Virus record (IMG/VR): IMGVR_UViG_3300032312_001770 | Location: 1 to 64,000 of that record | Source: a virus | Lineage: Duplodnaviria > Heunggongvirae > Uroviricota > Caudoviricetes | Direction: 5' to 3' (one strand) | Length of the DNA stretch: 64,000 bases | Shown here: positions 25,201-52,104 of the stretch, in pieces | Position numbering within the stretch: position 1 is the first letter of the stretch | Layout of the letters: every line of letters begins with the position of its first letter | Position numbers and translations under genes: made by a program | Notes under the pieces: generated by a model | Databases searched by the model: none | What the model was told of the DNA's origin: nothing | The model's input: the letters and a program-made list of their open reading frames with translations, nothing else

Positions 25201-26364
25201 TCTAATCCAAAATGGAAAACAATAGGTGTTTGGAACCCAAGTGTTTCATATACTAATACTTACATTGTTCATAACCGAGTAGTTTACTCTTGTATTTCGT
25301 CAGCAACTGGAAATGAACCAGGCATATCAAATGATTGGAAAAGACAGTATAGTTTAGTACCGGATACTTCTATAGCTTACAACTCGTCAACAAATCCTAT
25401 AATTGAAATGAATGATTCTTATTATATGATTAACACCAATGCTTCAAATTCAACTTTAGAAAATGGAATTAACATTTATATAAATAAAAAATGGAAAAAT
25501 ATATTAGTTAATATAAATATTGCGGATAATACTATACCAAATATATCAGAAAGTGATAGAGATACTATGTATGGTGATCTTAATAAAAAATTAACAGCTA
25601 ATAATTTCATACAATGTATAAATGACTTATCAAATAAATTCGGATTTACAGATTATGTAAATTACATAATTATTAATGAAAATGGTAGTATTAAAAAATA
25701 TAACTATAATAATATAGAAGGTTTACCTTATCATATATCCTGTGAGACACCGGAAGAGGTTGTTATGAAACTTAATTCAATTATAAGAAAACCTATTGCT
25801 TTACCTAAGAAATTAAAGCCAATTAATATTCTATCATCTATTTCGACAAATTTATCGAATTTAAATTACTACAATAATATATCAGTAGCTGCTGAGATAT
25901 TAACAAATAAAGATACACCTAAACCAATAGCTAATTTACATGGTACCAAAAATATAACTGAAGAAGTAATTTATAGATTTAGTGGATTCTATATGCCTAT
26001 TTTTTATGATATACAGTTATTTAATAAAAATTCTTTTACAGCTTCTGTTGGTAATTACAAATTTGACACAACATTAACCGAATTTGGACTGATAAAAGAA
26101 AGAAAAGTAAGAAAAGTAAATCACAATGGTTCTGTTCTTAAATTAAAGAATGTAAAAGATGAAAAATCTATTTATCCAATGGTTCAGGAGTTTGGATATA
26201 CAACAATAAATACATTTATATTTAAGTCAACTTGGGATTTGAATTATCATTATATAACATCAAATAGTGATGTTGTTATTTCAAATTTAGAATCTAAATC
26301 AAGACTTGTTAGAAATCCTGGTTTAATAGGTGTTCAAAATCCAATTAAAAATATAAATTTATAA
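22261..26364 (+). CDS. large virion structural protein (1367 aa), GTG start
   Basis: Continuous ORF 16 nt after the previous gene. Confidence 0.55.
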   Translation: MKSFAILRTNVGLTTNIKVMVDSSYNLSLSSIESKDELSNSKFKKVDFIKKNYYDELVTYFYDGLPSDIAFYIKYENDIDSMSNDYSVQYDEIYQYGARNITNNKNYKEEFEYFAPLYISPNNLPKNFIIFRVDGAGIDTITKDNFKNNILSKFKTVKLFDLTRNTGIGEWLDLNFNKNSFFPLTPFEMSFQNLEFSKWNGIDYETGGYTSKSQFLESVYEEEKEIYELEKFVFDGYQNNKLVFPNILNMSFLFDDMPANSDTFRKWSINRYYGFYLEDMTMVKSISPYITPFIKSNVIIQEGNILYSPTGDPFVEGFLDHKVYYVEYNGEYYKVENFQGITPNVLQSVQNGNVVTQQYTNKVTDKYRIISDIDLTGKQSMLNKGFGTIAGDDTVYPNRLLNYDNTNYLFDDWDSADIWLIEIDGMYHNLVRESGPELVNGVKTNTTRIRINSDYSFKVNQNDYMYWINKTDSNYTKKVSFVVDKDNAPKKFNIYKLKFTDIKDFDDKIIDTEYSKYEYENKFTLTDTDETKMYLTNLDSKTFPKNYDDFTYNSEVVNIPVSSEYTANYETFKIDRGNLSEIWRKNATYCRWGFQNSLSANDVPYLLNNSLMFEDYNRTANPFDPDTKRIERNLDYFYTINSSTSSYIHHTLHVENQKTSGIDSTFKFEVNKYLNLATYSVGTGSATYSFDYFSYFFERNANFDNLRINKNVKKYSIFNTGNNSIPNISLFKGIKFLIYDIDDIKKDETGAISVLNLKTSNNFDGYKFSILLSDNDWSVVDSPSGNNIGVLTQSQNLMNWTIFDDWKMDKTYKLNDIVVKDDILYKSSIINNITTNPVREYGLAKKSMSAPYNQVGWVPYTTVSGKSVFWSPIGTYPGSGVGDNNDIVYNNDDYYYFYNAGGTNDFWNPIQSDSTAGYTQSAIVLFKGKYYMSMTASNHYRPDYQQPYKITRSYSSIRSGLEGISVFENVGSYYWVETQPSNPKWKTIGVWNPSVSYTNTYIVHNRVVYSCISSATGNEPGISNDWKRQYSLVPDTSIAYNSSTNPIIEMNDSYYMINTNASNSTLENGINIYINKKWKNILVNINIADNTIPNISESDRDTMYGDLNKKLTANNFIQCINDLSNKFGFTDYVNYIIINENGSIKKYNYNNIEGLPYHISCETPEEVVMKLNSIIRKPIALPKKLKPINILSSISTNLSNLNYYNNISVAAEILTNKDTPKPIANLHGTKNITEEVIYRFSGFYMPIFYDIQLFNKNSFTASVGNYKFDTTLTEFGLIKERKVRKVNHNGSVLKLKNVKDEKSIYPMVQEFGYTTINTFIFKSTWDLNYHYITSNSDVVISNLESKSRLVRNPGLIGVQNPIKNINL

Positions 26365-26365
26365 T

Positions 26366-27055
26366 ATGAGAAGAAGTTATATATCACCAGAATACACAGA
26401 ATCTTCAATATATGGAACTTTCAATATGATTGAGGAAAGTAATTTCTTTGGTGCTAAAATGTTAGAGGTTGAAGATACTATTAATATATCAAATCAAAAT
26501 ATAATTTATTATCAAAAATCAACAGGTGAGCAAATAGATATATCAATTGAATCGTCTTTACCATCTCAAGTTTATTCAGCTTCAGATAATATGAAGTCAC
26601 GTCAAAGTATTATTATGGATCCTACACAATTAGGCTACCAAAAAGAAGGTAATACTAAATGGGTGATAACAGTGGATTTGAAAAATATATTAGTAGATTA
26701 TCTTTTTGCTGTTATGAAAAGATATAGAACATTTGAGAGTATTAGTAATAACCTAACAAGAACTAATGATGTTAATACAGCAATTAGACAATACATATCA
26801 AGTAATGTTTTAAATAGATATAAATTTAGTAAGTTAGATCTTTATATTTCTTATAAAGATTTAATGCAACAAAATGTTTTAAGATATAAAAATACTTGGA
26901 ATCCTAATGCGGTGTCTGATGCTCATTTATTAAAAAAGGCTCAAAAGGATTTATCATTTGATGAATCTGAATTAAAGATTTTCTTTAGTCAAGAAAGATC
27001 ATCATCTCAATATAACTTTGAATACTACTTTAATATTTTATTTGAGAAAATCTAA
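26366..27055 (+). CDS. hypothetical protein (structural module)
   Basis: 229 aa, starts 2 nt after the previous stop. Confidence 0.5.
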   Translation: MRRSYISPEYTESSIYGTFNMIEESNFFGAKMLEVEDTINISNQNIIYYQKSTGEQIDISIESSLPSQVYSASDNMKSRQSIIMDPTQLGYQKEGNTKWVITVDLKNILVDYLFAVMKRYRTFESISNNLTRTNDVNTAIRQYISSNVLNRYKFSKLDLYISYKDLMQQNVLRYKNTWNPNAVSDAHLLKKAQKDLSFDESELKIFFSQERSSSQYNFEYYFNILFEKI

Positions 27056-27085
27056 ACAAGTGATGACTTATTCCATAAAAGTTAT

Positions 27086-27496
27086 ATGGAAAATGAAGAA
27101 TTATATCGTAGTTTAGTAATACTACTTAAAATGTTCAAAAATCGACCTTATCACTTAGCTAAGTATTTGGTAGAAAACTCTGCACTTACTGAAGAGTTTA
27201 TTAGAAAACTTAAAAATAGTGATAGACTAAAAGAACTAAATGAAGATGAAAAGTCTTCAGAACAAAAACTTTTACCAGTTCCGGTGCCTGTATATTTTGT
27301 TGATATATCTCAAATGGAGAATTTCTATAATTCCTTTGTTGATGATATTCAACAACTTTCTAAACAAAAAGGTATAGAAGAAGTCACTAAGGAACTAAAT
27401 AAAAAACTTGACGAACTAATCATAAAAGAAAAGTATGAAGAAGCGGCAAGAGTTCGTGATTACATGATGAGAAATAATATAAAAAGAAATTTATAA
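27086..27496 (+). CDS. UVR-domain protein
   Basis: C-terminal YEEAARVRDYM matches the UvrB/UvrC UVR motif. Confidence 0.45.
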   Translation: MENEELYRSLVILLKMFKNRPYHLAKYLVENSALTEEFIRKLKNSDRLKELNEDEKSSEQKLLPVPVPVYFVDISQMENFYNSFVDDIQQLSKQKGIEEVTKELNKKLDELIIKEKYEEAARVRDYMMRNNIKRNL

Positions 27497-27553
27497 TTTT
27501 TCTAAACAATTAAAGTAAAAACGAATATATTAACTTGTAACTCTATAAAAAAT

Positions 27554-28651
27554 ATGAATATGAATAATAAAACAATTGGAAATGAGGAAATGATGGACAT
27601 CTTTGATGAAACTATATTTACTCGCAAAGGCACTCGCAATAAAAGCACCAAAGAGTATCAAGAAATGATTAAACTTTATAAACTTGACGAAATCGCTATC
27701 CCTGAAGAAGGTCAAGTAGTATCAGCTAAATACGTTGGCATGTCAGCAGGTCAATTTGTGTTCAGTGTAGTTGGATACAAAGACGATGTAAGAGTTGATG
27801 ATAAAGTTGGTGAATCTAAATACTTCAAGAATTTAAACTTGAATGATATGATTGATGTATTAGTTACAGAAGTTAATCAAGATGCTTTTATGATTAAAGG
27901 AAGTGTTTCTTCTCTTTATGAATCAAGAGCTCATGCTAAACTTAAAGCACTTGTTGAAGGTGAATCAGTTATGGTTACAGTTAAGAGTCTTAACCCTGCT
28001 GGTTACGATGTTGAATTAAATCACGGTGGTGTTACACTTCCAGGATTTATGCCAAACACCTTAGCCGGAATCAATAAGTTACACGATACAATGTCTATTG
28101 TAGGACAGAAATTTAGTGTAATGATTGAGTCATATGCTCAAAACGAAGGAACGTATATTGTTTCAAGACGTAAGTATCTTCAAACACTTATTCCTGAGGC
28201 TGTTAAAGAACTTGAATATAATAAAATATATCAAGGTCACGTTACAGGAACTACACCATTTGGTGTGTTCGTAGAGTTTAATGAATGCTTAACTGGAATG
28301 ATTCACAAAGCAAACGTTAATCCAGATTGGGCAGAGAAGTTAACTTCAATCACACCAGGATTTGAAATTGACTTCTACATCAAAGAAGTGATTAAAGATA
28401 AAATTATCTTGACTCAAATTCTTCGTGAGACTCTTTGGGACAACATCAAAAACGGTCAAATCATTGAAGGTACCGTTAAAGACACCAAAGCTTTTGGTAC
28501 TTTAGTAAACCTTGATGATGAGACAGTGGGTCTTATCCACACTTCAGAAATGGAGAAACTTGGTAAGAAATTCACTTCGGGTCAACCGATTAAAGTGAAA
28601 GTTTTAAGTGTAGACCGCATGAGTAGAAAAATATTCTTAACCTTAGGTTAA
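27554..28651 (+). CDS. S1 RNA-binding-domain repeat protein (ribosomal protein S1-like)
   Basis: Four S1-like repeats, e.g. GQVVSAKYVGMSAGQFVFSVVG, GHVTGTTPFGVFVEF, GTVKDTKAFGTLVNL...GQPIKVKVLSVDRMSRKIFLT. Confidence 0.7.
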   Translation: MNMNNKTIGNEEMMDIFDETIFTRKGTRNKSTKEYQEMIKLYKLDEIAIPEEGQVVSAKYVGMSAGQFVFSVVGYKDDVRVDDKVGESKYFKNLNLNDMIDVLVTEVNQDAFMIKGSVSSLYESRAHAKLKALVEGESVMVTVKSLNPAGYDVELNHGGVTLPGFMPNTLAGINKLHDTMSIVGQKFSVMIESYAQNEGTYIVSRRKYLQTLIPEAVKELEYNKIYQGHVTGTTPFGVFVEFNECLTGMIHKANVNPDWAEKLTSITPGFEIDFYIKEVIKDKIILTQILRETLWDNIKNGQIIEGTVKDTKAFGTLVNLDDETVGLIHTSEMEKLGKKFTSGQPIKVKVLSVDRMSRKIFLTLG

Positions 28652-28673
28652 GATTAATTCTACCAGAAAAAGA

Positions 28674-28705
28674 AAAGCCTCAGATTTATCTGAGGCTTTT
28701 TTTAT
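28674..28705 (+). terminator. rho-independent terminator (AAAGCCTCAG-loop-CTGAGGCTTT then T7)
   Basis: Direct reading; immediately 3' of the S1 gene. Confidence 0.7.
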
Positions 28706-28721
28706 TTATATAGTTGTAATA

Positions 28722-29204
28722 TCATGATTTAACTTCAATTACATATTGACCGGGATAAGCTCTGAAATCTGGTTTAACCATTACCGTAATAACAGTTAAT
28801 CTAAACTCATTATCACCTGGTACTAATTGACAAACAACATTTAAGTTATTTGTTTTATTTTTAATTAAAAATCTATTAGGATCACCGGCTTTGACTCCTT
28901 TGGTTGGATAATTATCTTCCAATTGATAGATATTGAATTTATCTTGCATGAGAGCAATAGTCAATTCTTCAATTGCTAATTCAATTGTATCAATAATATC
29001 TTCGTCTTTAATTTGATTTTCTAAAGCACCGTGTCTGAATTGTCTATCACCAGCATGATTTACTTTCTCAACATCAATTCTGATTTCAACCGGCTCTTTT
29101 AAGTAAGCAATTTCCTTAGGAGGTCTACTAGCCGCAATTCTTCTATCAATATAAGGATTGTTAAAAGCTTCAAATGTTTTTAGATTTTTCATTAATATAC
29201 CCAA
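28722..29204 (-). CDS. hypothetical protein (MKNLKTFEAFNN N-terminus)
   Basis: 160 aa; TTAATATATAC element upstream on the minus strand (29218-29229). Confidence 0.45.
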   Translation of the reverse strand: MGILMKNLKTFEAFNNPYIDRRIAASRPPKEIAYLKEPVEIRIDVEKVNHAGDRQFRHGALENQIKDEDIIDTIELAIEELTIALMQDKFNIYQLEDNYPTKGVKAGDPNRFLIKNKTNNLNVVCQLVPGDNEFRLTVITVMVKPDFRAYPGQYVIEVKS

Positions 29205-29231
29205 TTTTTTGTATTGGTATATATTAATTTT

Positions 29232-29978
29232 TTATGCTAGTATTTTGAGAACAACATCTTCTGTAAACTCTTTCATATCGTTTACATTAATTGTGTCAAT
29301 AGTGTCTTTAGAAGAGTGACAATTATATAACATAGAGAAGTCTAAGTAAGTATTATCATCCCATTTAACTTGAGATTTCTTACCTTCATTCAAAGGTGGA
29401 ATAGGATTGATAACACAAGAGTCAATTCCATTCTTTCTAAAAGTAACAGAATCGTTATAAGGAGTATTTGTAATAGGACAATCAAAGATTGATTTAATAT
29501 GATTAGATAGTCGACCTGGATAATTACCAATAAAAAAATACTTACCACCTTTACCAGTTAATTCTAAGTTAAGAACCCAATCAATTTGACCGAAATAACC
29601 TTCATTAATCTGTTCTGAAGCTCTTTGAGAGCCTAAACCACCACATTCTTCACCATCTAAAAGAACAACGTTTATATGAGGCATTAGCTTCTTAATTGAT
29701 ATAGCATTAATAACAGATGCTGAGTTGTCGTTAGCATTATCAATGTTAGGATTACTAACATCGTGGTGAGCAACCACCATTCTATCAGATTCGCCTTTTA
29801 AGATAAGATTATAACAAGTAGTTCCTCTTGACTGATAAGTATCTAACTCATAGTCAATATTCTCAGACTGTAAAAGATCCATAAGAAATTGTACCCTTGG
29901 TGTAGGTTTATCTCCATTTGAGTAAACACTACCAAAGTTTCTTACTTTACAAAAATCATATATCTTATTATACAACAT
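29232..29978 (-). CDS. putative zinc metallopeptidase (M28/M20-like HxD...DGEE)
   Basis: VVAHHDVSNP and VVLLDGEECGGLGS segments. Confidence 0.35.
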   Translation of the reverse strand: MLYNKIYDFCKVRNFGSVYSNGDKPTPRVQFLMDLLQSENIDYELDTYQSRGTTCYNLILKGESDRMVVAHHDVSNPNIDNANDNSASVINAISIKKLMPHINVVLLDGEECGGLGSQRASEQINEGYFGQIDWVLNLELTGKGGKYFFIGNYPGRLSNHIKSIFDCPITNTPYNDSVTFRKNGIDSCVINPIPPLNEGKKSQVKWDDNTYLDFSMLYNCHSSKDTIDTINVNDMKEFTEDVVLKILA

Positions 29979-29980
29979 AA

Positions 29981-30550
29981 TTAAACTTTTTCATCAAAAA
30001 ATACTTCACAGTGGTCTTTAGAATAGATACCAGTAATTCCTCTTGGATAAATCTCACCGCCCATTTCTTTACTTCTACCCCATTTCATAATAGTAGACAT
30101 TTTAGAAAATGATTTAGCCCAAACTTTAATATCAGTTTTAACCCAAGAACCATTTCTTTGAAGTATATCTTTATGATCGGTGTATTCTTCTAGGTGGTGC
30201 CAGATTTCACCAGTATCTTTTCTGAATTCTTTTCTCATATTAGAGATAGATTTTTCATATCTTTTATTGAAATCATTCCATTGTTCTTCAGTCCAAGTTG
30301 ATGAATCTTTAGGATGTTTGGGAACAGTATTTGGTTGATATGAACTCATTCCACCTATTAAAAAAAATTCTTGAGCAATTTTAGGCATAGCATAAAACCC
30401 ACGACTAGCCGGTGGTTGATGATAAGTCTCTGGTTTTTTTGAGAAACCTTTTTGATTTTTCAAATCTAAACCACCAAATCTTACAAAAGTATATATGTCT
30501 TTACCTTTTAACATTATTCTAATATCTTTCTTAATTGAAATTCGCGCCAA
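29981..30550 (-). CDS. hypothetical protein
   Basis: 189 aa. Confidence 0.4.
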   Translation of the reverse strand: MARISIKKDIRIMLKGKDIYTFVRFGGLDLKNQKGFSKKPETYHQPPASRGFYAMPKIAQEFFLIGGMSSYQPNTVPKHPKDSSTWTEEQWNDFNKRYEKSISNMRKEFRKDTGEIWHHLEEYTDHKDILQRNGSWVKTDIKVWAKSFSKMSTIMKWGRSKEMGGEIYPRGITGIYSKDHCEVFFDEKV

Positions 30551-30807
30551 ATATCTAACGGCATAAAATGTTTATCATCAAATATACTAATGAATTCACC
30601 GGTTTTAACACTACTCACACTTACTAAATTCTTTTCAGACATTTCAATACAATCATCAATTTGATATTGTTCGCCAACTTCTAACAGGTATGTCATTCCA
30701 TACATCTTATCAGTTACACAAATTACAATATCTCCTTTTTTATATCTCAACACTTTACAAATGTAAGGAAAGTTTTTAAAATAAAAAAACTCTTTGAAAT
30801 TAATCAA
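30514..30807 (-). CDS. hypothetical protein (start uncertain; 5' end overlaps a terminator hairpin)
   Basis: 97-aa ORF. Confidence 0.3.
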   Translation of the reverse strand: MINFKEFFYFKNFPYICKVLRYKKGDIVICVTDKMYGMTYLLEVGEQYQIDDCIEMSEKNLVSVSSVKTGEFISIFDDKHFMPLDIWREFQLRKILE

Positions 30808-30817
30808 AGAGTTTTTT
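30787..30817. terminator. bidirectional terminator-like palindrome AAACTCTTTGA-loop-TCAAAGAGTTT flanked by an A-run and a T-run
   Basis: Direct reading; 3' of the minus-strand gene 30834..32756. Confidence 0.55.
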
Positions 30818-30833
30818 TATTAATAGAAGTTGA

Positions 30834-32756
30834 TTACTTCTTACCTTTTTTTGAAAGGTCTTCAACAGGCACATCAGTAGTAGGCACTTCTGATTTCACT
30901 GTTGTGTCGTTCATACCCTTACCAATTTGGTTACCCATCATGTTTAAGATTTGAACTCCCAATAATCCGTCTATTGCTCCGTTCCCGCTTTGTCCACCTC
31001 CATTGATTAACAAGTCTGGCATGATTTTCACACCGTTTTTACCAATCTCTTCGGTAACCTTAAATGTTGTAAAGTTTTCTTTACCCATCGCCTCAACGGC
31101 TAGCTTGTATGCTTCTGCTGTAGATTTACCCTTAGAAAGAATAGCCTCAGCTTCAGCATTACCAATCAATGATGTTCTTGTAGCATCTGCTTCTGCTTTC
31201 AACTTAGTAGACTCAGCACTAGCTTCAGCCGCAATTTTAACAGACTCAGCATCACCTTTTGCTTTCTTAACAGAAGCATCAGCGTGACGTTCAGCAATTT
31301 GAACACCTTGGTCAGCTTTTACAACTTCACCCTGCATATCCGCAATCGCAGTTTCTTTTTCAAAAGTTTGACGTGAGATAGCGGCTTTCTTTTGAGTTTC
31401 AAAAGTTACTTCTTGCTCTTGAGCAATCTTACGGTCAGTTAGTGTTTTCATCAACTCTTGTGGTGGTACGATATCACCAATCAAAGTATCAACAGCGTGA
31501 ACGTTATATTCATCTAATACTTTAGAAATGTGTTGTTTTGCCGAATCTTGGCGTTCTTTACGAGTAGTTAAGAAAGCAATAACGTCAGAATCCTGAGCTG
31601 AGTTACGGAAGTAGTTACCAATTGTTGGTTCTAGAACTTGAGATACCAAGTTATTCATATTACCAAATCGAGCAATCACTTTAGGTGCTTCTGTCATTGG
31701 AATGTGAATAATCTGTGATACATCTAAGTTGAATGGGAAACCATCTTTAGAACGAACAGTGATTGTGTTAAGTCCTTTATCTAAATTGTGAGACTCAGTA
31801 CGAGCGTTAGCCCAGTTAAGAACTAAGTTTGTTGTTGGTACTAACTCAATCTTATTTGTGTATTTATTGATTGGATATTTACCAGGTCCGAATGGTTCAG
31901 CCCAAACACCTTTCTGACCTTTACCAACTAAGTTACCGTGTTTAAAGTTAACACCAGTTACGTCAACTCCATCTTCACCAACGAAAGAGATAACAACACC
32001 AACGTGACCAATTGGAATCTCAGTCATTTGCACTTCTTCTACTTGAACAGCCCAAGGGTTTAAGTTATAAGTACCCGCTAAGATAGTTTGTTGTTGTAAA
32101 CCACGATTACCACCTTTTTCTAAGAACATATCAAAATCTTGGAAGTTATTATGTTCTTCAACATTTTTACCAGCGATTTGCCCATTCTCTAATGGCTCAC
32201 CATCTAATGTAGTAACAACACCAACCATATTCTCTTGAATAGTAGCTTGTTTAACAATAGATACTTCAAATAAGTAAGTATTGATTTTATAAACACCATT
32301 TGGAATAAAAGCTGCCTGACGACCTTTCTGACCACCGTTAGTTAAGAAGGTAACAGCATCTTGAAAGTTTTCACATTCTACTCTACGTCCTAAGATACGA
32401 CCTGTTTGTGGAACAGTACCATCTTTAGAAGAAACTAATCCAATATGACCTTCTGGAATAACTACGAAACCATGCATATCGATGTTATATTGCCAAGGCC
32501 ACATCCACCAACGAAGACCCGGAGAAAGCATTTCTGCTTGATAACCTGCTTCGCCATTTACCGCAATAATACGGTCACCTGTAAGTTCTTTGTGTTCTCC
32601 AAAAAGAACAAACTTTTTTGTTACTAAACCAATTTTGTCCTCAGGAACAATAACTAGTCCGAAAAATACTCTTAGGATGAACTTGTACATAACTAAGCAA
32701 AGTACAATTGCTCCAATCCACCAATAGTTTGCCATAAAATTTAAAATGTTACTCAT
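30834..32756 (-). CDS. SPFH/band-7 (flotillin-like) domain protein
   Basis: N-terminal transmembrane helix, duplicated SPFH-like regions, C-terminal Ala/Glu-rich flotillin-type repeats (AEADATRTSLIGNAEAEAILSKGKSTAEAYK). Confidence 0.65.
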   Translation of the reverse strand: MSNILNFMANYWWIGAIVLCLVMYKFILRVFFGLVIVPEDKIGLVTKKFVLFGEHKELTGDRIIAVNGEAGYQAEMLSPGLRWWMWPWQYNIDMHGFVVIPEGHIGLVSSKDGTVPQTGRILGRRVECENFQDAVTFLTNGGQKGRQAAFIPNGVYKINTYLFEVSIVKQATIQENMVGVVTTLDGEPLENGQIAGKNVEEHNNFQDFDMFLEKGGNRGLQQQTILAGTYNLNPWAVQVEEVQMTEIPIGHVGVVISFVGEDGVDVTGVNFKHGNLVGKGQKGVWAEPFGPGKYPINKYTNKIELVPTTNLVLNWANARTESHNLDKGLNTITVRSKDGFPFNLDVSQIIHIPMTEAPKVIARFGNMNNLVSQVLEPTIGNYFRNSAQDSDVIAFLTTRKERQDSAKQHISKVLDEYNVHAVDTLIGDIVPPQELMKTLTDRKIAQEQEVTFETQKKAAISRQTFEKETAIADMQGEVVKADQGVQIAERHADASVKKAKGDAESVKIAAEASAESTKLKAEADATRTSLIGNAEAEAILSKGKSTAEAYKLAVEAMGKENFTTFKVTEEIGKNGVKIMPDLLINGGGQSGNGAIDGLLGVQILNMMGNQIGKGMNDTTVKSEVPTTDVPVEDLSKKGKK

Positions 32757-32796
32757 TTGTTTTTGTTTTTTTTTATATTAATTGTTTATTTAATTA

Positions 32797-33285
32797 TTAA
32801 TCGTGTTCGTATTCGTCAACACTTACACCTTCTGGTGTTATTGTGATTTCAGCATGATCTCCAAATTGAGTCATAAAGAAATCTTCATCAAAGTTACTCA
32901 AAAATTCTTTAATTTCATCAGATGCTGATGCTAATTCTTTATCATAAATTAAATTCGGAACTTCTGTACGACCTTCATACTCTTTTTTCTCACGGTTCCA
33001 AGTACCATAGTTTGTAATTTTAGTTTCATTAATCCAATCAGATTCATCTACTGACTCACCATTGATATAAATGTAATCAGTATTTACTGAAAAGGTACAA
33101 CTGTCACCATCATTGAAGTAAGGCGTGTATTGATTCCAACCAAAGGATTTTACTTTAGGATGGTCTTCAAAAATTGTCTTTGTCAAATCTGTAAAGATTT
33201 TGTTAGAAGCTTCTAACATTTCTTTTTTTAACTTTTTAATTTCTTCTTGTTTCTCGCGAAGAACTGCGAATTTGTCGTTACTCAT
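32797..33285 (-). CDS. hypothetical acidic protein
   Basis: 162 aa. Confidence 0.4.
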   Translation of the reverse strand: MSNDKFAVLREKQEEIKKLKKEMLEASNKIFTDLTKTIFEDHPKVKSFGWNQYTPYFNDGDSCTFSVNTDYIYINGESVDESDWINETKITNYGTWNREKKEYEGRTEVPNLIYDKELASASDEIKEFLSNFDEDFFMTQFGDHAEITITPEGVSVDEYEHD

Positions 33286-33311
33286 ATTGTGTTTTTGTAT
33301 ATTAAGATTTT

Positions 33312-34037
33312 TTATTTTGTTTCAATTTTTTCAAGAATATCCTTTAATGACATATTCAACAGAGTCGTATAATCATCTGGTGTAATTCCTAAATTAGTAC
33401 CAGACTTTTGACAAGCCCAATCAATAATTGAAAGATGATGTCTATTTGGATCGATGACTGATTTAGACAACATACTCATTAGTTCTAATTCTTTATTAGC
33501 AACCAATTCAATTTTTCTAATATCTTTTGATTTTACAATTGCTGGCTCTTCACCGTGTAATACAGAGTTTAGTGAAATCTCACGAGCTTCTTGTGGAGAC
33601 AATTTTCTAAATTTCCAAGTAGAGAATTTTAGTGTACGAGGAATACCAACAAACTTAACTGTTTTTTCAATGCGTGTGTACGATTGTTTATTCCAACCCA
33701 TTTTTTGAGAAGATTTTGACTTTAATTCTTCAATTTGATACATACATCCTTTACCAAGTGTTTTATAACTATCTGAAGTACAAACAAGAATGTCACCTTT
33801 AGAAAGATCTTCAAATTTTAAATCTTCAATGTGTACTCTCGGAACAATAACATTTATCTTAGGTAAAGGATTTCCGTCAGTGTCAGTAAAATTATCAACA
33901 ACAAATCTACCTACTCCAAGAATGTCAACTGTGCCTTCTTGCCAACGTTGGTTAGTACCATCATTATAAAGACTACCTGTCTCATAACGAACACCTTTAA
34001 CTAATCTTTTAGTTGGTCTTTTACAAATTACTATCAT
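33312..34037 (-). CDS. hypothetical protein
   Basis: 241 aa. Confidence 0.4.
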   Translation of the reverse strand: MIVICKRPTKRLVKGVRYETGSLYNDGTNQRWQEGTVDILGVGRFVVDNFTDTDGNPLPKINVIVPRVHIEDLKFEDLSKGDILVCTSDSYKTLGKGCMYQIEELKSKSSQKMGWNKQSYTRIEKTVKFVGIPRTLKFSTWKFRKLSPQEAREISLNSVLHGEEPAIVKSKDIRKIELVANKELELMSMLSKSVIDPNRHHLSIIDWACQKSGTNLGITPDDYTTLLNMSLKDILEKIETK

Positions 34038-34038
34038 A

Positions 34039-34434
34039 TTAATCTAAATTTACTTTAATATTTCCTTTTTGTGAAAGTTTTTCAAAAGATGATGGATGAC
34101 CTTTAATACCATTTTGCATCCAATCCATAAACTCCATATTTTCAAGATAATCTTGTGGAGTTGGAATAAATCTCATGCCAAAGTCTTCTAATATATGTTG
34201 TTCACAAACATCTTTTACGGAGAATTCTTTACCTGCTGAGTTTTTCATAGTGTACCCAAAGATAGGTATCATTACTTCATGAATCCAAAAACTTGTATGA
34301 GTGAGTACTCTGTGTCTATTATCAGAAACATAAGCTTTAGAGCAATCCATCTTCATATGGATATGAAGATAATCTTCTGGTTCGCCTCCAAACTTTCGAG
34401 CAGAGGACTTTGAATGAATATAAGCGTTAGCCAT
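34039..34434 (-). CDS. hypothetical protein
   Basis: 131 aa. Confidence 0.4.
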   Translation of the reverse strand: MANAYIHSKSSARKFGGEPEDYLHIHMKMDCSKAYVSDNRHRVLTHTSFWIHEVMIPIFGYTMKNSAGKEFSVKDVCEQHILEDFGMRFIPTPQDYLENMEFMDWMQNGIKGHPSSFEKLSQKGNIKVNLD

Positions 34435-34887
34435 TTATAATTCTATATTTGTTTTATTAAAAATTTCTTGTAAATCTTCCTTAGATAATTTATCAAGTAC
34501 AAAGGTAAGGATATCTTCTGAATTGTCAAATTTATTTAAAATATAATCTTTCATAAATTCGATATAGTCAGGTTTATCAGCTATTCCAAGACTCAACATC
34601 TTTACATTTCGCTGCCATTGAATTCCACCGTTAACAACATATCTACCCTCAATATTTTTAATTTCAGTAGTAAATTTTATACGATAATCGGTTGTAGCTC
34701 CTGTATTATAATCATAAGTTTCCCAATCACGAATAGGCATTTCATGAACTCGTTCTGGATAATTATGTATATTGTCGCACAAATCCTTAGCTTCTTTTAA
34801 ACCAAGACCACTACACTCTTTTATCAACTTAACAAATGCTAACTTGTTAGGAGTTTTTTCGATTAATTTTATTTTAATAGTTTTCAT
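34435..34887 (-). CDS. protein with an N-terminal ribosomal L7/L12 C-terminal-domain-like module
   Basis: [36 protein letters not shown] aligns with the L7/L12 CTD ([36 protein letters not shown]). Confidence 0.5.
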   Translation of the reverse strand: [150 protein letters not shown]

Positions 34888-35555
34888 TAATAGTGTTTTG
34901 ATACAATTGATTGTTCAGATCTTAAATAAGAATCTATAACCATTTGGTCAATTTGATGAATTTGGTCTAATGGTCTGTGATTAAATCTACCTTCATAATT
35001 GTGAATTACGAAGTTAGCCATTCTATTTTTATCTAAATCATCAATTTCATTTCTCATTAGATAAGCAATATCTGAAACTTTATTTTTAGTTAATTCTCTA
35101 CATCTTTCCATTCGTGTAATCTTTGGACAAAAAACAACAATGCTTTTATCCATTAGTTTTTGCCAACTTCTTTCAAATAAGATAGATGAATGAAATATTG
35201 TGTAGATTGATCCTTTATTTTTTACCGAAAACTTCTCATATGCCATCATTAATTCATGTTGAGCAAAATCAATTATGATGTCAAAATCAGATTTAGCTAC
35301 TAATTTAGGATCTATATAACAAGACTTGTTATAAACATGTGGAAGTTTTCTTCTTATCTTGTCGGTAACTGTTATATCATGATTGATAATAAATTTCAAA
35401 ACGATATCTGCCTCAAAAACAGGAATTGTTAATTTTCTGAAAATATTACAAATCTGGTCAGTGCCAGAATATCTATTACCCGAAAGTCCAACTTTTATCA
35501 TTGTATAAAATATATTTAGAACTACAAATATATAAAACATTCTTAGAAAAAACAA
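34887..35555 (-). CDS. hypothetical protein
   Basis: 222 aa. Confidence 0.4.
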   Translation of the reverse strand: MFFLRMFYIFVVLNIFYTMIKVGLSGNRYSGTDQICNIFRKLTIPVFEADIVLKFIINHDITVTDKIRRKLPHVYNKSCYIDPKLVAKSDFDIIIDFAQHELMMAYEKFSVKNKGSIYTIFHSSILFERSWQKLMDKSIVVFCPKITRMERCRELTKNKVSDIAYLMRNEIDDLDKNRMANFVIHNYEGRFNHRPLDQIHQIDQMVIDSYLRSEQSIVSKHY

Positions 35556-35586
35556 CTTTATTTAAAAATCATATAAAAGTAATCTT

Positions 35587-36549
35587 ATGTACACTAACGA
35601 AGAACTTGGTTTTATCCTTTACAATAATCGCTCTGTTAAAGGTGTCGTTTCTAATTTCTTACCAAAATTAAATCCTATAAAACTTATGAAAATTGAAAAT
35701 CAATTCAATAAGTGCAAAGAGATTTTTAATAATGACAACAGAATGGTTGAAATCAACATTGATGAATTAGACACTGAAGCCGAAGATGTTATTATAACAC
35801 CTGAAGAGTTAGCATCACTTACTGACTTAATTACAGAAAATATAGGCTTATTGAATACTAATGAATTTGAGTATTTAGAAAAAAGAGGATTTGGTGAAAA
35901 AACAATTTTAGATTGGGATATATTAGGTTTATCTAATATTAAAGAAATAAGACACCATGAGATATTAGGCTCTACTTGTCATCCAGTTCTTAAAACCATA
36001 ATGACTGATGGTATTGAAAATGGTGGTATATTAATTCCACTTTTTAAAGATGGCGTTTTAGTTAATTGTGCTGTTAGAAAGATAAATTCTTCTAAGTCAT
36101 TAAAATATTCATTGGCTTGTCCTGATATTCCAGTTTGGGGATTAGATAAGTTTGAAAAAGGCAAAGAGATTTGGATTGCTGAGGGTATATTTGATACAAT
36201 AGCTCTTTTTAATTTAGGTAAAAAGTCTGTTAGTTGTTCATCTGGTATGTGGTCTGGTTTACAGCTTTATCAAGTTCTAGAAAAAGAACCAAGTTCAATT
36301 GTGGTATTTGCTGATAATGATTCGGTTGGTTTAAGAACATCAGCTATTCTAAAAGAATTCTTTACAATGAATCACATTCCAACACGAATAGTTATCAGTA
36401 AAATTGCTAAAGATCCGGCAGAACATTATTTTCAAAAAAATCAAACATTAGATAATCTTTTGGAAATTGATGTAACTCTTGATATGATTGAAGAACACAA
36501 AGATGATGTTTTTAATTTTCTCAGACATATGAAAAATAGAAAGTATTAA
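35587..36549 (+). CDS. Toprim-domain protein (primase/topoisomerase-like fold)
   Basis: IWIAEGIFDTIAL (E..D) and VVFADNDSVG (DxD) spaced as in Toprim. Confidence 0.45.
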   Translation: MYTNEELGFILYNNRSVKGVVSNFLPKLNPIKLMKIENQFNKCKEIFNNDNRMVEINIDELDTEAEDVIITPEELASLTDLITENIGLLNTNEFEYLEKRGFGEKTILDWDILGLSNIKEIRHHEILGSTCHPVLKTIMTDGIENGGILIPLFKDGVLVNCAVRKINSSKSLKYSLACPDIPVWGLDKFEKGKEIWIAEGIFDTIALFNLGKKSVSCSSGMWSGLQLYQVLEKEPSSIVVFADNDSVGLRTSAILKEFFTMNHIPTRIVISKIAKDPAEHYFQKNQTLDNLLEIDVTLDMIEEHKDDVFNFLRHMKNRKY

Positions 36550-36693
36550 TTAATATATACTTTACAAAAAATTTCTAATATTTTATGCCTAATAAATTAC
36601 AATTTTATAACGACAGTGATATCGGTTACGATATTGAATGGCACACAGATGAGTTAATGGATGAAGTTGAAATAGAAGAACAAATAGAACAAG

Positions 36694-37656
36694 ATGAAGA
36701 AGAACTTAAAAAAGTATAACGATTTTATTAATGAGTCTTTAGTTGCTAAGCCAAAATTAACTAAGCCAGAATTGGATACTATTATAAGTAAAATTATTTT
36801 AAAAGTACCTGGAAACTGGAAAGAAAAGATATCTGATTTAAGAGATGAATTTGAAGAATCAGTAGTCAATATGGCTGATTTTTTTCCTGGTTGGTTTTCT
36901 GATATGTGTAAAAGAAAAGATGCTAATCCTGAAGGTGATTACCAAGAAATGCAAAAACTACTTGATAAGAAAGGTTGGAATTTTGAATCAATTAAAAATC
37001 TATTCAGTGAAGAAGTTAATAAATTAGTTGATAAAGATTTTACTGGCTGGTTTAATAGTTATGGTCAAATAGGAAGTAAAAATGGTCATTGTGACGTTTA
37101 TCTTTATTTTACTGCTAAAAATTTAGGATTAAATACAGATATTGTTTCTTTAGGTGGTGATGGTTGGGCCAATTATAACGAAGGTGATGAGATGTATATA
37201 AGATATAGATATGGTTATCATCAAACTAAATATGGTCAATTAATGCTAGACCAAATAGGTTATACAGTAGAACAATTCAGAGAAGAAGCCTTAGTTTATT
37301 TACAACAAGATATTGAAGATAATTGGAATAATATGATTTCATCAAGTGTTATGCGTAATGGTGTAATTAATAAAGTTCCTGTTAGAAGATCTGACTTAAA
37401 TGATAATACGATAAAAAATTTAACTTCTTTTTTAAAATCTTCAATTCAAATAGAAGAATATACTTTAGTTGAAGATGATAGAATGATTATATACTCAAAT
37501 GAGATTGCTAATGATATTAATAAGGCTTTTCCAGATACAACAACATCAGAAGAAATATCATCTGGTATAGTTAAGTATTTAGAATGGGCTGGAACTGATA
37601 TTGAAGTTGTTGATGGTGATGTTATCATCTGGGGTAAATTCAAAGTTGACTTCTAA
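36694..37656 (+). CDS. hypothetical protein with a T4 internal-protein-like N-terminus (MKKNLKKYNDFINES)
   Basis: 320 aa; TTAATATATAC element at 36550-36560. Confidence 0.5.
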   Translation: MKKNLKKYNDFINESLVAKPKLTKPELDTIISKIILKVPGNWKEKISDLRDEFEESVVNMADFFPGWFSDMCKRKDANPEGDYQEMQKLLDKKGWNFESIKNLFSEEVNKLVDKDFTGWFNSYGQIGSKNGHCDVYLYFTAKNLGLNTDIVSLGGDGWANYNEGDEMYIRYRYGYHQTKYGQLMLDQIGYTVEQFREEALVYLQQDIEDNWNNMISSSVMRNGVINKVPVRRSDLNDNTIKNLTSFLKSSIQIEEYTLVEDDRMIIYSNEIANDINKAFPDTTTSEEISSGIVKYLEWAGTDIEVVDGDVIIWGKFKVDF

Positions 37657-37703: not shown

Positions 37704-38819
37704 ATGATAATAAATCTTAAATCGGAAACAGAACTATCTGGTTTCTACGTTGTGTATGAAGGTTCAACTAATCTTGAGAAAAAAGGTTGGTTTGGCATCT
37801 CTCACTTAATGGAACACTTAATGTGTAAAAATTTTGACCATCTTCAAGAAGATTTTGATAAAGATGGTATTGATTGGAATGCTTACACAAGTTCAAATGA
37901 AATCGTTTTTTATCTAACAGGTTTAGATGAAAAAGTAAATAAGTGGAAAGGTGAGTTTATGGACTTACTTGGCGAGTTCAATGTTACTAAAGAACAGTTT
38001 GAGAATGAAAGAAACATTGTACTTGAAGAGTATATGGATTGTTTCAACGATCAAACTCAAACACATATGTTAAATCTTAGTCGTAAATTATTTGGAGATT
38101 ATGATCCAATTGGATTAAAAGAAGATTTAGAAAAATTAAAGTATATGGATTGTTTGAACTTCTTTGAACTTCAGTATGCTAAACCTACTAAAATTATCAA
38201 CGTATCTAAAAATAAACCTTACAAAAATAATAAAATTGATTTTGCTAAGAGAGATATTAAAAAAACTATTGAGTTTGGTAATAATGATGTTGCCTTGGAA
38301 CTAAGTAATGAGTTCAAAGATAAAACATCTATTGCTATTCTTTCTCCAATAATTGAAGAAGATTTTGCTTATGTGCATTTTATTAATGCGATGTTATCAT
38401 TAGGATTAAAATCTCCTTTATATCAAGAAATTAGAGAGAAAAAAGGATTAGTTTATTATGTACATTGTTATCAATCAAGAGTTAATAATCAAGGTATTAA
38501 TACTATTTCAACTCAAACATCTAATAAAAATTACAATGGTGTAGTTGATGCTGTTAAAGAAGTAATTACAAATCCTGATAAGTATTTAACTAAAGAAAGA
38601 TTTGACTTAGTTAAAGATTACTACAAAGTAAGAATGGCTAAAGATGAAATTCTTAGATATAAAAATGTTAATCAATATATCAATCCAGAGGGTTGGTCAG
38701 TATATGAAATCTTAGATAAAGTCAATATGAAAAAGATTAAAGAAGTCTATAAAAAATATTATAATTTTGACAACTTCTATGTTTCTAATGATAAAAAAGA
38801 ATTTAAAAAGTCCAGTTAA
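37704..38819 (+). CDS. M16 (pitrilysin/insulinase)-family zinc peptidase-like protein
   Basis: Inverted zinc motif HxxEH in GWFGISHLMEHLMCKN, followed by NAYTSSNEIVFYL as in M16 N-terminal domains. Confidence 0.6.
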   Translation: MIINLKSETELSGFYVVYEGSTNLEKKGWFGISHLMEHLMCKNFDHLQEDFDKDGIDWNAYTSSNEIVFYLTGLDEKVNKWKGEFMDLLGEFNVTKEQFENERNIVLEEYMDCFNDQTQTHMLNLSRKLFGDYDPIGLKEDLEKLKYMDCLNFFELQYAKPTKIINVSKNKPYKNNKIDFAKRDIKKTIEFGNNDVALELSNEFKDKTSIAILSPIIEEDFAYVHFINAMLSLGLKSPLYQEIREKKGLVYYVHCYQSRVNNQGINTISTQTSNKNYNGVVDAVKEVITNPDKYLTKERFDLVKDYYKVRMAKDEILRYKNVNQYINPEGWSVYEILDKVNMKKIKEVYKKYYNFDNFYVSNDKKEFKKSS

Positions 38820-42865: not shown

Positions 42866-45800
42866 ATGGCAACATATTCAGTCGATATAAATGTTAGAAA
42901 GAAAATATTTAATATTCCAATAGATCTTATTGGTGTTAGTTATACTGAACCTCGTAGTAATGTTCCTACTTTAACAAATTCAAGTATTAGCGCTATTGCT
43001 AATGTAATATCAACAAAGCCACAGTTAATAACTAGAGCTCAATTACAAAATCTTGGTAATAATATTAATCTTGTTGGTTATGATCCATTAATTGGACTTG
43101 TTACAAATTCAAATAAAACATTTAGTCCTAAATTACTAAACTGGGTTGAGCCTTATGATTTAAACGCGAGTGGTACATACAAAACTACTTTCTATACAGA
43201 AGTAAACACTGGGTTAAAAGTTGGAGATAAAGTATTTATATTAAATGGTAACTATGATAGTGATTTATTAATTCAAAATAATAAATATAAAAAAGGAAGA
43301 GATGGTTATAAAGTTCTATATGTTGATAATTGTAAAATTACCTTAGATATAGATTATACCGGAGTTCTTCCTTATAAGTCAAGTATTGATGATGATTTTA
43401 TCAAAGTATATTATATTAGAAATCAGTCAGAGTTTTTACATGCTAATAGGTCAGTGACTACAAAAAGTGGTAAGTTTGAAAATAAGTTTAGTTATTACAA
43501 CAATAATATAATTTATGTTGATGCCGTTTATTCAACATCTGAATTTTGGGGTAGAAATACAGGTGTTGCTGGGCCAGGATTTTATGTAAGAAGTTCATCA
43601 GCAACTTGGACAAGTATTACATCACCATTTACCACAACCGGTTCTTATTCATATTCAACACAATCAAATGCAAATAAAGTAAAAATAATGAACGGTGACT
43701 TTACTTATAATGGTAAAGAATACAAAGAAGGATTTATTTATAAATGGTTTGTTGGTCCAACTCAATCTGAGTGGATAACTGATGTGACTTATTTTCCACC
43801 TTACATATCTAAAAGTAATTTTAGAGATGGTGTTTTTAATGGGGAATTAAATTCAGGTATATTTGGTCAATATTATAAAAAAATTAACTGGTTTGGTAAT
43901 GGCTCTGTTTGGAACACAGGAACACTTATTAACACAAATTGGCAAAAAGGTACTTTAGATTCTTTATATACCGCCTCTCAAAGTTATTTTTCCAGTTTTG
44001 ATAATAATGGTTTACCATACCAAAAAGCTAACTCACCTAACAATGCTGGTAGAGGTTACAATTTTGTTTTAAATTCTAACATTAATCAATCAACAGTTGT
44101 TAATGGATCTATTTATTCAACAATATTTGGAACACATTCTAATGCAACTTATTCAATTGTAGAAAATGAACTATTAGAATATAGCACAACTTATTTAAAT
44201 ACTATCAAAAGTGCTTTTTTCAATAAATGTGAATTTAATAATTCATTTATTGAAAATTCAGAATTAAAAAATACAATATCTAATAACTCTAAGTTTGAAA
44301 GAGTAAAGTCTATAAACTCTTATTTTAATAAATCTGTTTTAAAAGACTCAAGCTATAATAGTGATAATATTATAAAAATATTTGCTTATGATGAATTAAC
44401 CGCATCTGAAAGTTCAAGTTTACCTGGTTTAACATACAGTAACATAAATGATGTAGTTCAAAAAGTTTATAAATTCTATATTGATAAAAATGGATATGAG
44501 AGACTTAGAACAGGTGATGCTTTTTATCTAAAAGGTATTAAAATTAATAACAATAGTAAAAATGTAATTAATTTCTTTGATAAAAAGTTTAAAATAGGTT
44601 CTTGGACGGAATACATTGAGAGTAATTTTGGAACAGTAGCAAATGGCAAAAGAGGATATCAATATTCTGCTTTTTTATCATCACCATTAGATAACAATCT
44701 CAAATTTACAAGTGCTACATTTTCAGAGACTTCTGGTCTAAAATATCAAACAATTGCTTATTCTAATAATGTTAATAGTAACTACTACTCAATTGATTTA
44801 TGGGTAAGTAATTATGATATAAACAATAATAATACTGCAGGTGAAAATTTAAACTTCAATTCAGATATGTCTGTTTATGATGCTAATTCACTACAAGGAC
44901 CAAATAGTTTAGGAAATATAATTGATGTAACATCAGCTTATATTGTTGATGCTGATTTTGATAGTGGTTTAATTGAGAACTCTGATTGGAATAGTGGATC
45001 TCACATAGAATCAAATAATGATAATAATATTACAATACCATCACTATCTGGTGGTACCTATAGTCTTTCTATTAATAGTTCTAATTATATTGTTGCAACA
45101 ACATCATATAATTCTAATTACTCTGAATCTAATTTAATAAGTATAGGTGATATTGTTTTCTTAGACTCTGTTGACTTTCAACCATCTCCAAAAATTATAA
45201 CAACCACTAGTAGTTTGTTTCCAGATACACAAGTTGGATTTACAACGTTTTTTACTTTTACTCAATCGTATGATAATATTTTAATAACCGGTTCTTCGTC
45301 TACAACATCATTTGATGGTACTTTTGATTTATTTTATGAAAGTGGCACTTATCCAACCTCAACATTAATAGATAATCTATTAGGTAAATATATGGATTAT
45401 AACACCACATATAACTTTAGCATACCACTTTCCGGTGTTAGTGCTAGTAATTCTATACGTTTTTATATTAGTGATGGTGGTTTAGATAATTTGAATTTTC
45501 AAATAATAAATTTAAATGATTCTTCAAGAATTCCAGACACTTACAAAGTTATGTCAAATACTAATGGTGTTTATCAATTAAAAGAAATAGGAACTGTTAG
45601 TAACATAATTAGTTTATCTGCTTCTAATGGTTCTTTTTATACAAAGAATGCTCAGAACAGATATGGTCATATTAAAAAGTTAAAAATTGACAAAACAAAT
45701 ATTAAATCAGGATTTTTAAGAAGGTCTTATATAACAGGTTCATTAATACAAAATATAGATTTGAACTACTTAGATAAAGATTTAACTAATTTAGAAAATA

Positions 45801-51400: not shown

Positions 51401-52104
51401 ATTATCCTCTAAATGGCGATACTTCAGCATCTGAGTATGTAATAGATAACTTACACTTTTATGAGATTGATATGATACCATTTTTTCAATATTTTACAGA
51501 TAATAATATCAATAAAAGTGTTCAAGTTCCATTTCAAGGAATATCACCATTTATTGATTATTCAAATGTTGGATTTAACTTTGTTGATAATCTTACAATT
51601 GGACTAGATAGTATTAGAACAGAGAACTCTAATGATATAGTCAGTGGAGTTGGTGCGGGTATTGGTAACATAGGTAGAGCTACTTCGGGATCTATCGGAG
51701 GAGGAAGTATTTTTACTTCACCCGCAATCGAAGCACCATTATCATCATTAGTAATTGAACCGGGTGGATTTGCTCCACTATTACCATATACAATATTTGG
51801 CGACACATCAACAACTTCTGCTACTATAACAGGTACTATAACAGTCAATACAGCACCAGTTACTATTAATTTAACTTCATCAGCGAGCGGAGGCTCTATT
51901 TTTAGTATCAGATTCACTACGGCTACTTTAGTTATAGGTGGTACTGGAACTATTACGGGTGTTGGTAGAACAATGGTACATAACTCTAATAGTGTGTCAT
52001 CATCAATATCTACTACAAGAACGTTAACACAGAATACAACATACCCTTATACTTTAAGTATAACAAGAACCGGAACAGGATTAGCATCGTTTTCTTTATC
52101 TTAA
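48478..52104 (+). CDS. large (1208 aa) structural protein sharing the same WxNGxF-type repeats
   Basis: FKAGIWENGVWNSGWRV, VWLSGAFLNGYFKGVWNYGLFKGY. Confidence 0.55.
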   Translation: MTSFIRRSGRLSLPVSTAPTFALDPSLFTNALLDSGYSYWVYDALPTPGRLHVDSTAIDGRAPGGTGGVRGIFILKHNNPSAYTYSPDKTYQIITNTVNVYATAASFSVSFNWGDQLNYSRGMTAAYGAPGTATQSFVHYSTPPERLTTRNDVIYKANGTFSNAGTTQNNRGIVSYTVNELDFRILGFSYYKMQYFELSREELKNSLGWYYDKPSDIYFWYDRVSSTSSNDSLGYFPVGGNNNSKVANKGYRLNNAIYKFVPYTYFNLNFNYQNTTSSPLRVYLSPSPPSTLIPSAANYNAGIYTPPNGSTLIATITQSSYGTFSSTDSSVPVGFYGIRGNQYLIFVGPFMGATSSSSATASVYLQNIIVDGAYHPGNNRQYVMTSGLTYSTTVTGLTGATYATIVGNGNTINATSSLSIGRIFSKIGNGSFKAGIWENGVWNSGWRVDDGMFEFYNVTSFFSYNRNKRWRVQISGPSESVSNFNIGDNVAIGNIIAIDINEDRKLLKGYYTIINKTYNSIVVEFDNNFPIRRIEKDSDNHRIFITKNVWLSGAFLNGYFKGVWNYGLFKGYPLITEMYDSHWIDGIFDGGHFVSDPYILPDFIDTFFNSGGVGLQFATNSTPHGLVVGDLITVDKNNKSLNPQYDGDHNVLEVINNYQVVIDVDYGSDSTLEGGKVYIDKNKGLLQRVDFKSNNVSKITSANSTDSGSVFVYNSWMDVNYDPSYATNIGKPQSTLNPLSRKSFSENNLYGYTTNDVLESNSTFRDSFSTTIRRYKLGTKYKIFADFIGDAGKFEDEFGGTFSDAESTFLKEGWTFSRTNISSLTFSRTTPADNEPLITGEELIVQARNSGGILDITPFSDDYIANRTYEEVQKLRYTKVEFDVITFSGPITTYGDNYNYLFTFNNFYRQPPIHFNNLNLIIRQVYTSGISYRTIDYAKFLPVYENVNHLNTRNKKKVEYFYNKRNLSMNFAGLNYPLNGDTSASEYVIDNLHFYEIDMIPFFQYFTDNNINKSVQVPFQGISPFIDYSNVGFNFVDNLTIGLDSIRTENSNDIVSGVGAGIGNIGRATSGSIGGGSIFTSPAIEAPLSSLVIEPGGFAPLLPYTIFGDTSTTSATITGTITVNTAPVTINLTSSASGGSIFSIRFTTATLVIGGTGTITGVGRTMVHNSNSVSSSISTTRTLTQNTTYPYTLSITRTGTGLASFSLS

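Follow-up and report, generated by a model that had tools for sequence, protein, structure and literature searches.

The window analysed here, positions 1 to 64,000 (64,000 nucleotides) of IMG/VR virus record IMGVR_UViG_3300032312_001770, encodes on its minus strand a 150-residue protein in which an N-terminal domain homologous, on the comparisons given below, to the CTD (C-terminal domain) of ribosomal protein bL12 (L7/L12) is joined to a helical domain specific to its own family. The bL12 CTD serves translational GTPases as a universal landing pad; IF2, EF-Tu, EF-G and RF3 share it as their site (PMC10931766; likewise, reportedly, Helgstrand 2007). The architecture of the phage protein tentatively suggests an adaptor for these factors. 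The gene and its parts, with the N-terminal domain called the head and the C-terminal domain the tail domain, are as follows.

34435–34887, minus strand: two-domain L12-like gene, a complete open reading frame (ORF) of 150 residues in the ORF list, with its stop codon at 34435–34437
34627–34887, minus strand: head, residues 1–87, a complete bL12-CTD-like domain (ClpS/L12 fold) in the predicted structure
34768–34872, minus strand: residues 6–40 (strand 1, helix 4 and helix 5), the segment with sequence-level bL12-CTD identity by PF00542 and hhalign
34687–34731, minus strand: residues 53–67, an insert that varies between lineages and lies after strand 2 and before the last helix of the head, in alignment columns gapped in most homologues
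34624–34629, minus strand: Gly87-Gly88 domain junction, a putative hinge (G87 in 130 of 167 and G88 in 131 of 179 sequences)
34438–34623, minus strand: tail domain, residues 89–150, an acidic, predicted four-helix, family-specific domain with invariant R93 and conserved K96, L98, L100, G101, D107 and Y108

Homology and predicted architecture

The protein matches PF00542 (Ribosomal_L12 C-terminal domain) with 31.1 bits (E 3e-7) against a curated gathering cut-off of 25.9 bits. The match pairs residues 6–40 with profile positions 3–37 of 67, and a precomputed PF00542 match is present in most homologues. By direct reading, 13 of the 25 residues at positions 15–39 are identical to the corresponding segment of Escherichia coli L7/L12. 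The top phmmer matches among PDB sequences are all bL12 chains (Thermotoga maritima 1dd3, E 1e-3; E. coli 1ctf, E 2.6e-3), with non-bL12 matches appearing only at E ≥ 0.2, and hhalign of a 34-member family profile against E. coli L12 aligned residues 58–91 with a probability of 94% (E 1.5e-7). Judged from these sequence and profile comparisons, the N-terminal similarity to the bL12 CTD is far beyond chance and represents genuine homology. An earlier sequence-only reading of the gene had likened its N-terminus to the factor-binding CTD of L7/L12 and had named PF00542 as the profile to search with; both the likeness and the profile match hold.

The same reading supposed that the N-terminal, L10-binding region of L12 is absent, in agreement with the finding that Ribosomal_L12_N (PF16320) has no match in the protein even at E ≤ 10. 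Since no such N-terminal domain (NTD) is detectable and the score for the NCBIfam bL12 equivalog TIGR00855 (27.7) is far under its cut-off (84.4), the protein, by its profile matches, is not a true bL12 but carries a bL12 head domain. Other matches, namely a PAV1-137 bromodomain-like match (17.5 bits against a cut-off of 27), FRP and Mre11_C, were sub-threshold and were ignored. A megablast search of the region against 50,697 phage records gave no match.

A full-length AlphaFold2 model based on a 34-sequence alignment has a mean predicted local distance difference test score (pLDDT) of 78.9. The predicted order of elements in residues 1–87 is strand 2–10, helices 15–26 and 30–42, strand 47–52, insert 53–67, helix 68–78 and strand 82–86, with lower pLDDT (66–71) in the insert; the predicted two-layer α/β structure (β-α-α-β-α-β) is the fold of PF00542. 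The α/β L12-CTD fold that the sequence-only reading had proposed to look for is thus predicted, and its division of the protein into a 40-residue mimic and about 110 unrelated residues has to be redrawn: the whole L12-CTD fold would comprise residues 1–87, leaving only about 62 residues that are foreign.

ClpS and the L12 CTD share a fold, and the protein was accordingly also considered as a ClpS-like proteolysis adaptor from this fold superfamily that would work with the peptidases encoded nearby (described below). We regard this explanation as very improbable. The head is only 7–10% identical to ClpS and 24% identical to bL12, the L12 signature motif is conserved, unlike in the ClpS N-degron adaptor, and the ClpS family PF02617 gives no match at E ≤ 10, whereas PF00542 passes its cut-off.

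The predicted helices of the tail domain span residues 89–145 of a domain of about 62 residues. Modelled alone from 93 sequences, the tail domain reaches a pLDDT of 93.6 and a predicted template modelling score (pTM) of 0.73, compared with a pTM of 0.56 for the full-length protein. This difference suggests that the two domains fold independently and have no fixed orientation to each other, and the Gly87-Gly88 junction may act as the hinge between them. The mean net charge is -4 for the tail domain and +2 for the head. In effect, the architecture is that of L12 with the order reversed, the factor-binding head coming first and a partner-binding helical module second.

Searches for relatives of the tail domain outside the family gave no significant match. 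Its profile found nothing below E 0.3 among PDB sequences, and a Pfam scan of 24 members gave only sub-threshold matches in this domain. The most frequent of these, a likeness of residues 89–150 to peptidyl-tRNA hydrolase (Pept_tRNA_hydro; 7 of the 24 members, best E 7.5e-4, below cut-off), is translation-related, but it depends on an LGIG..DY..F motif in a predicted helical region and was treated as probably due to chance. An origin by internal duplication, with the C-terminal helix-LGIG-helix as a degenerate copy of helix 4-GLGL-helix 5, was dropped because the L12 profile comparison lent it no support.

An architecture that parallels L12 in reversed order would suit a protein that is incorporated into ribosomes as a surrogate stalk, with the tail domain docking on uL10/uL11 or rRNA so that phage-modified ribosomes carry the phage bL12 head, and in the work of Mizuno et al. 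a phage bL12-domain protein turned up in 70S fractions (PMC6375957). Such a role is nevertheless unlikely. The tail domain does not resemble the L12 NTD (hhalign probability 0.1% against E. coli L12 including its NTD, and no PF16320 match), its acidity (-4) makes rRNA binding unlikely, and no uL10/uL11 homologue lies nearby; no homologues of EF-Tu, uL10 or uL11 were found in the window or the related loci searched. Additionally, the tagged protein of Mizuno et al. was unusable for ribosome purification (PMC6375957).

Conserved surface and proposed role in translation

Full-length homologues of the L12-like protein number 87 (135–167 residues) in a collection of 5.8 billion proteins, and the tail-domain profile retrieved 127 clusters from 1.84 billion representative proteins. 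Leaving aside gene fragments and three proteins that are repetitive or longer, these clusters are all 127–170 residues long, and all but one of those (P0106) carry the tail domain at the C-terminus and a KLxFVKxIK...GLGLK[ED][AS]KD motif at the N-terminus (KLxFVKxIK...GLGLKEAKD within residues 6–40 of the window protein). Head and tail domain are one obligate unit, in a two-domain family diverse enough to form more than 120 clusters at 50% identity. Comparison of the window protein with its closest relative (81% amino-acid identity) gave a ratio of nonsynonymous to synonymous substitution rates (dN/dS) of 0.14 overall and 0.08 for residues 1–52; the gene is therefore a real, constrained protein-coding gene under purifying selection.

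Among 181 aligned sequences, the head positions of lowest entropy are L16, V19, K20, K23, G29, L30, K34 and D38, together with K15. Those of the tail domain are R93 (invariant), K96, L98, L100, G101 and Y108, and this domain is conserved to the same degree as the head. With an offset of +50 to E. coli bL12 numbering, set by phmmer alignments, K15, L16, V19, K20, K23, G29, L30, K34 and D38 correspond to E. coli K65, V66, I69, K70, R73, G79, L80, K84 and E88. All eight positions of the helix 4/5 surface of bL12 (K65, V66, I69, K70, R73, L80, K81 and K84) have counterparts in K15, L16, V19, K20, K23, L30, K31 and K34. According to this alignment, the best-conserved residues of the head map onto the factor-contact surface of bL12, whose K65, K70, K81 and K84 are conserved lysines. 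Mutations of V66, I69, K70 and R73 reportedly slow EF-Tu recruitment most (Kothe 2004, Diaconu 2005). Mutations of K65 and K70 of bL12 lower EF-Tu binding (PMC10602876).

A factor decoy or recruiter, as the sequence-only reading had suggested, is a reasonable hypothesis, since the head is homologous to a factor-binding domain, the NTD and hinge of L12 are absent, and the K65/K70-type residues are conserved. We tentatively prefer, at somewhat less than even confidence, a stalk-independent adaptor that would bind translational GTPases over a simple decoy. A captured bL12 CTD would have lost its uL10-binding NTD and hinge and gained the acidic four-helix domain behind the Gly-Gly junction. Helices 4 and 5 of the head would bind the sites used by host bL12 on the GTPases (helix D of EF-Tu, the G' domain of EF-G, and also IF2 and RF3), the targets being host factors or, where a lineage encodes an EF-G itself, that phage protein. 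The tail domain, with its invariant Arg93 patch, would hold a second partner, which may be the ribosome, some protein of the phage or a further copy of the adaptor, so that during infection the factors would be redirected or locally concentrated, not merely titrated. We infer all three elements of this proposal, namely the GTPase binding, the anchoring role of the tail domain and the direction of the effect on translation. The stand-alone L12-CTD proteins that exist in other phages (RSB3 ORF10) suggest that the second domain is an added function, not just a scaffold, and the presence of an S1-domain protein and a 10-tRNA cluster in the same window is in keeping with a role in translation.

The conserved factor-contact surface and the absence of a uL10-binding NTD would also suit a pure decoy or competitor, in which the free head soaks up host GTPases or blocks their bL12-binding site and so damps host translation, while the tail domain only stabilises or dimerises it. 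A 98-residue stand-alone L12-CTD protein is indeed encoded in the early host-takeover region of the T7-like Ralstonia phage RSB3. However, EF-Tu is extremely abundant and the affinity of the CTD for factors is low, which makes stoichiometric titration implausible; the phage needs the same factors; and a decoy would leave unexplained why the second domain is obligate and as well conserved as the head, with an Arg that is invariant. Phages that seem to require no more than the head encode it by itself, as in the 98-residue RSB3 ORF10, while the two-domain family never lacks its second domain. A simple decoy is therefore disfavoured, and we consider it rather unlikely.

A further reading, which we rate as rather improbable, is that of a 'reverse L12', in which a free module joined by a hinge would engage EF-G (in some lineages the phage's own) or other translational GTPases with its head, while its orphan four-helix domain would tether them to a phage-specified site. 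This site might be a subset of ribosomes, a phage messenger ribonucleoprotein involving the nearby S1-domain protein, or a non-ribosomal machine. If true, it would constitute a virus-built system of factor recruitment parallel to the ribosomal stalk.

Phage-encoded EF-G is found in some relatives. Among 'uncultured phage' records of the 50,697-record phage collection, only LR745206 and LR756502 have a translational-GTPase match, and both have the L12-like gene. The EF-G of LR745206.1 (654 residues; locus L010, 4980–6944, on the reverse complement of 26586–36960) adjoins a MetRS-like ORF and falls within a clade of 651–659-residue EF-Gs that are 57–59% identical to Bacteroidia EF-G; the EF-G match of LR756502.1 is located at 584221–584595. 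The phage EF-G keeps the G' domain, which is the docking site of the bL12 CTD, and has deletions at the junction of the G domain and domain II and in the C-terminal tail. The two genes occur together on LR745206, LR756502 and IMGVR_UViG_3300015608_003375 (about 14 kb apart on the last) and probably also share an 86,216-bp ENA scaffold. On L011, a related contig of 46 kb, EF-G has tRNA-synthetase fragments and RNA ligases as neighbours. The pairing is real on several assemblies but not general, and we treat it as suggestive and outside the core explanation.

Several points weigh against the preferred reading as a GTPase-binding adaptor. Searches detected no EF-G in the window or on the contig nearest to it in relationship, of 476 kb, so a dedicated phage EF-G partner is not general. 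The PF00542 match spans half of the model, the second half of the CTD having diverged past sequence recognition, and folding, or some other partner, could account for the conservation of the residues. None of the operon neighbours (CoaE-like kinase, DUF6915, SPFH and M28 peptidase) is a translation gene. The isolated bL12 CTD is said to bind factors weakly (Helgstrand 2007), and a monomeric adaptor might consequently be ineffective unless it oligomerises. Lastly, in the sole published experiment on a phage bL12-domain protein, ribosome association was based on one peptide and affinity purification failed (PMC6375957).

A free CTD that a virus encodes together with a partner domain would give a direct handle on the way in which huge phages rewire host translation, a theme raised in 2019–2020 without mechanistic follow-up for L12. 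The family is well defined, and its protein is small (150 residues) and offers clear sites for mutation, namely K20, K23, L30 and K34 of the head and R93 of the tail domain, which makes the hypothesis cheap to test. If nothing in translation were bound, the protein would be a clean case of a ribosomal domain put to new use.

Operon and phage clade

The L12-like gene stands second in a minus-strand operon of closely packed genes (~35555 to 28722). Its start codon overlaps the stop codon of the upstream gene (TAATG at 34887), and its stop codon abuts the ATG of the next gene. The features of this region are the following.

34887–35555, minus strand: CoaE-like P-loop kinase (dephospho-CoA kinase family; PF01121, E 2.5e-12), upstream gene
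34039–34434, minus strand: DUF6915 (Pfam PF21866), downstream operon gene, optional in relatives
33312–34037, minus strand: conserved 241-residue protein, downstream operon gene, syntenic in relatives
30834–32756, minus strand: SPFH/Band-7 protein of 640 residues, in the operon
29232–29978, minus strand: M28 peptidase, in the operon
28670–28703, both strands: bidirectional terminator-like hairpin closing the operon, a 15-bp stem followed by a T-run on each strand
27554–28651, plus strand: 365-residue protein, with an S1 RNA-binding domain (PF00575, E 1.3e-21) at its C-terminus
37704–38819, plus strand: M16 peptidase, near the operon

The TTG start listed for the CoaE-like gene is probably over-extended, the real start being Met19 at 35501 (homologues have 198–218 residues). 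The 241-residue protein has no match in Pfam, PHROG, NCBIfam or PDB. The SPFH/Band-7 protein and M28 peptidase, with the nearby M16 peptidase, make up a conserved proteolysis or membrane-associated gene set. The S1-domain protein lies about 6 kb from the L12-like gene and is conserved, with synteny, in all related phage contigs. A scan for sigma-70 promoters found fewer sites than in shuffled sequence.

The two best relatives in the annotated phage collection are the 'uncultured phage' assemblies LR745206 and LR756502, of 634,780 and 642,428 bp; closer relatives are metagenomic contigs of 481 kb and 383 kb and IMG/VR uncultivated virus genomes (UViGs). A syntenic block, M16, (Toprim), CoaE-like, L12-like, (DUF6915), 241-residue, (162-residue), SPFH and M28 (parentheses as in the block's notation), with the S1-domain gene on the opposite strand, is conserved as the identity of the L12-like protein falls from 81% to about 36%. 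The L12-like gene is thus a syntenic core gene of a huge-phage clade with genomes of up to about 640 kb. The hosts are probably Bacteroidota, to judge from one relative's Por_Secre_tail domain and from a phage EF-G with affinity to Bacteroidia.

In six of the seven related contexts, which span 36–81% sequence divergence, the CoaE-like gene directly precedes the L12-like gene (a 100-residue ORF intervenes in the other, L006), with the stop/start overlap in the window, and the 241-residue gene always follows, in the window after DUF6915. This arrangement raises the question of a partner or regulatory subunit of either neighbour, with the helix pair of the head repurposed for a non-translational NTPase. 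We judge this quite unlikely: tight packing and synteny are general in the core block of the clade, including M16, Toprim, SPFH, M28 and S1, and a new partner would not be expected to preserve the bL12 factor-contact residues so precisely.

The remaining content of the window, which is AT-rich (~30% GC), includes a Toprim/primase-like gene and the following features.

2472–4493, minus strand: 10-tRNA cluster, with four tRNA-Lys (three UUU and one CUU)
14420–15187, minus strand: sigma-70-family factor
16896–18725, minus strand: NAD-dependent DNA ligase with BRCT
55445–57193, minus strand: SbcC/Rad50-like ATPase
1062–2018, plus strand: collagen-repeat protein
22261–26364, 42866–48424 and 48478–52104, plus strand: giant ORFs of 1367, 1852 and 1208 residues, respectively

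Three of the four tRNA-Lys are unusually long (84–88 nt), which suggests introns or odd arms. The sigma factor, ligase, SbcC-like ATPase and collagen-repeat protein are typical of the huge-phage repertoire. The giant ORFs of 1367 and 1208 residues have no Pfam match at E ≤ 1e-3, and the equivalent of the 1852-residue ORF in relatives has only a faint pentapeptide-repeat match.

Comparison with known systems

Viral bL12-CTD domains were described by Mizuno et al. (2019, Nat Commun 10:752), either making up the entire protein or forming part of proteins as long as 724 residues, with conserved residues for uL11, EF-G and EF-Tu contacts, and were proposed to be translation-factor interfaces (PMC6375957). 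Examples of this type are Ralstonia phage RSB3 ORF10/BAN92321, RSJ5, N4-like phage proteins and AGF88397 of Salmonella phage FSL SP-076. Huge phages were found by Al-Shayeb et al. (2020, Nature 578:425) to encode rpL7/L12 among their translation genes (PMC7162821), and several phage proteins, crAss-like ones included, are labelled 'bL12 C-terminal domain-containing' in BFVD/UniProt. The view of the sequence-only reading that this fusion had not been described was therefore too strong.

Like the proteins of Mizuno et al., the L12-like protein has a PF00542 domain in a viral genome without the rest of bL12 and keeps the factor-contact residues; its relatives lie on phage contigs of 380–640 kb and IMG/VR UViGs, and the gene set of the window is phage-like. 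The family aligns with RSB3 ORF10 with an hhalign probability of 96.8%, and the top BFVD structural match is the RSJ5 protein. However, the similarity ends at about residue 50, and the family has its own obligate 62-residue, predicted four-helix domain and a variable insert. It is also found in huge phages (>380–640 kb) rather than in the <80-kb podoviruses listed for cultivated phages. The rpL7/L12 of Al-Shayeb et al. belongs to the same huge-phage ecological and genomic setting, but that paper lists it as a gene category, without anatomy, family definition or synteny (PMC7162821). To judge from their size, LR745206 and LR756502 may come from the same study.

The head of the phage protein is homologous to the CTD of bacterial bL12, is predicted to share its fold and has the conserved helix 4/5 surface as well. 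The protein differs from bL12 in starting at strand 1 of the CTD, without a dimerisation/uL10-binding domain or an Ala/Pro-rich hinge, in the diverged second half of the CTD with its insert, and in the extra C-terminal domain. Phage bL12-CTD proteins are thus known as a kind; what is new here is that a single widespread two-domain family is defined, its reversed-L12 architecture and synteny are described and its conserved surface is mapped.
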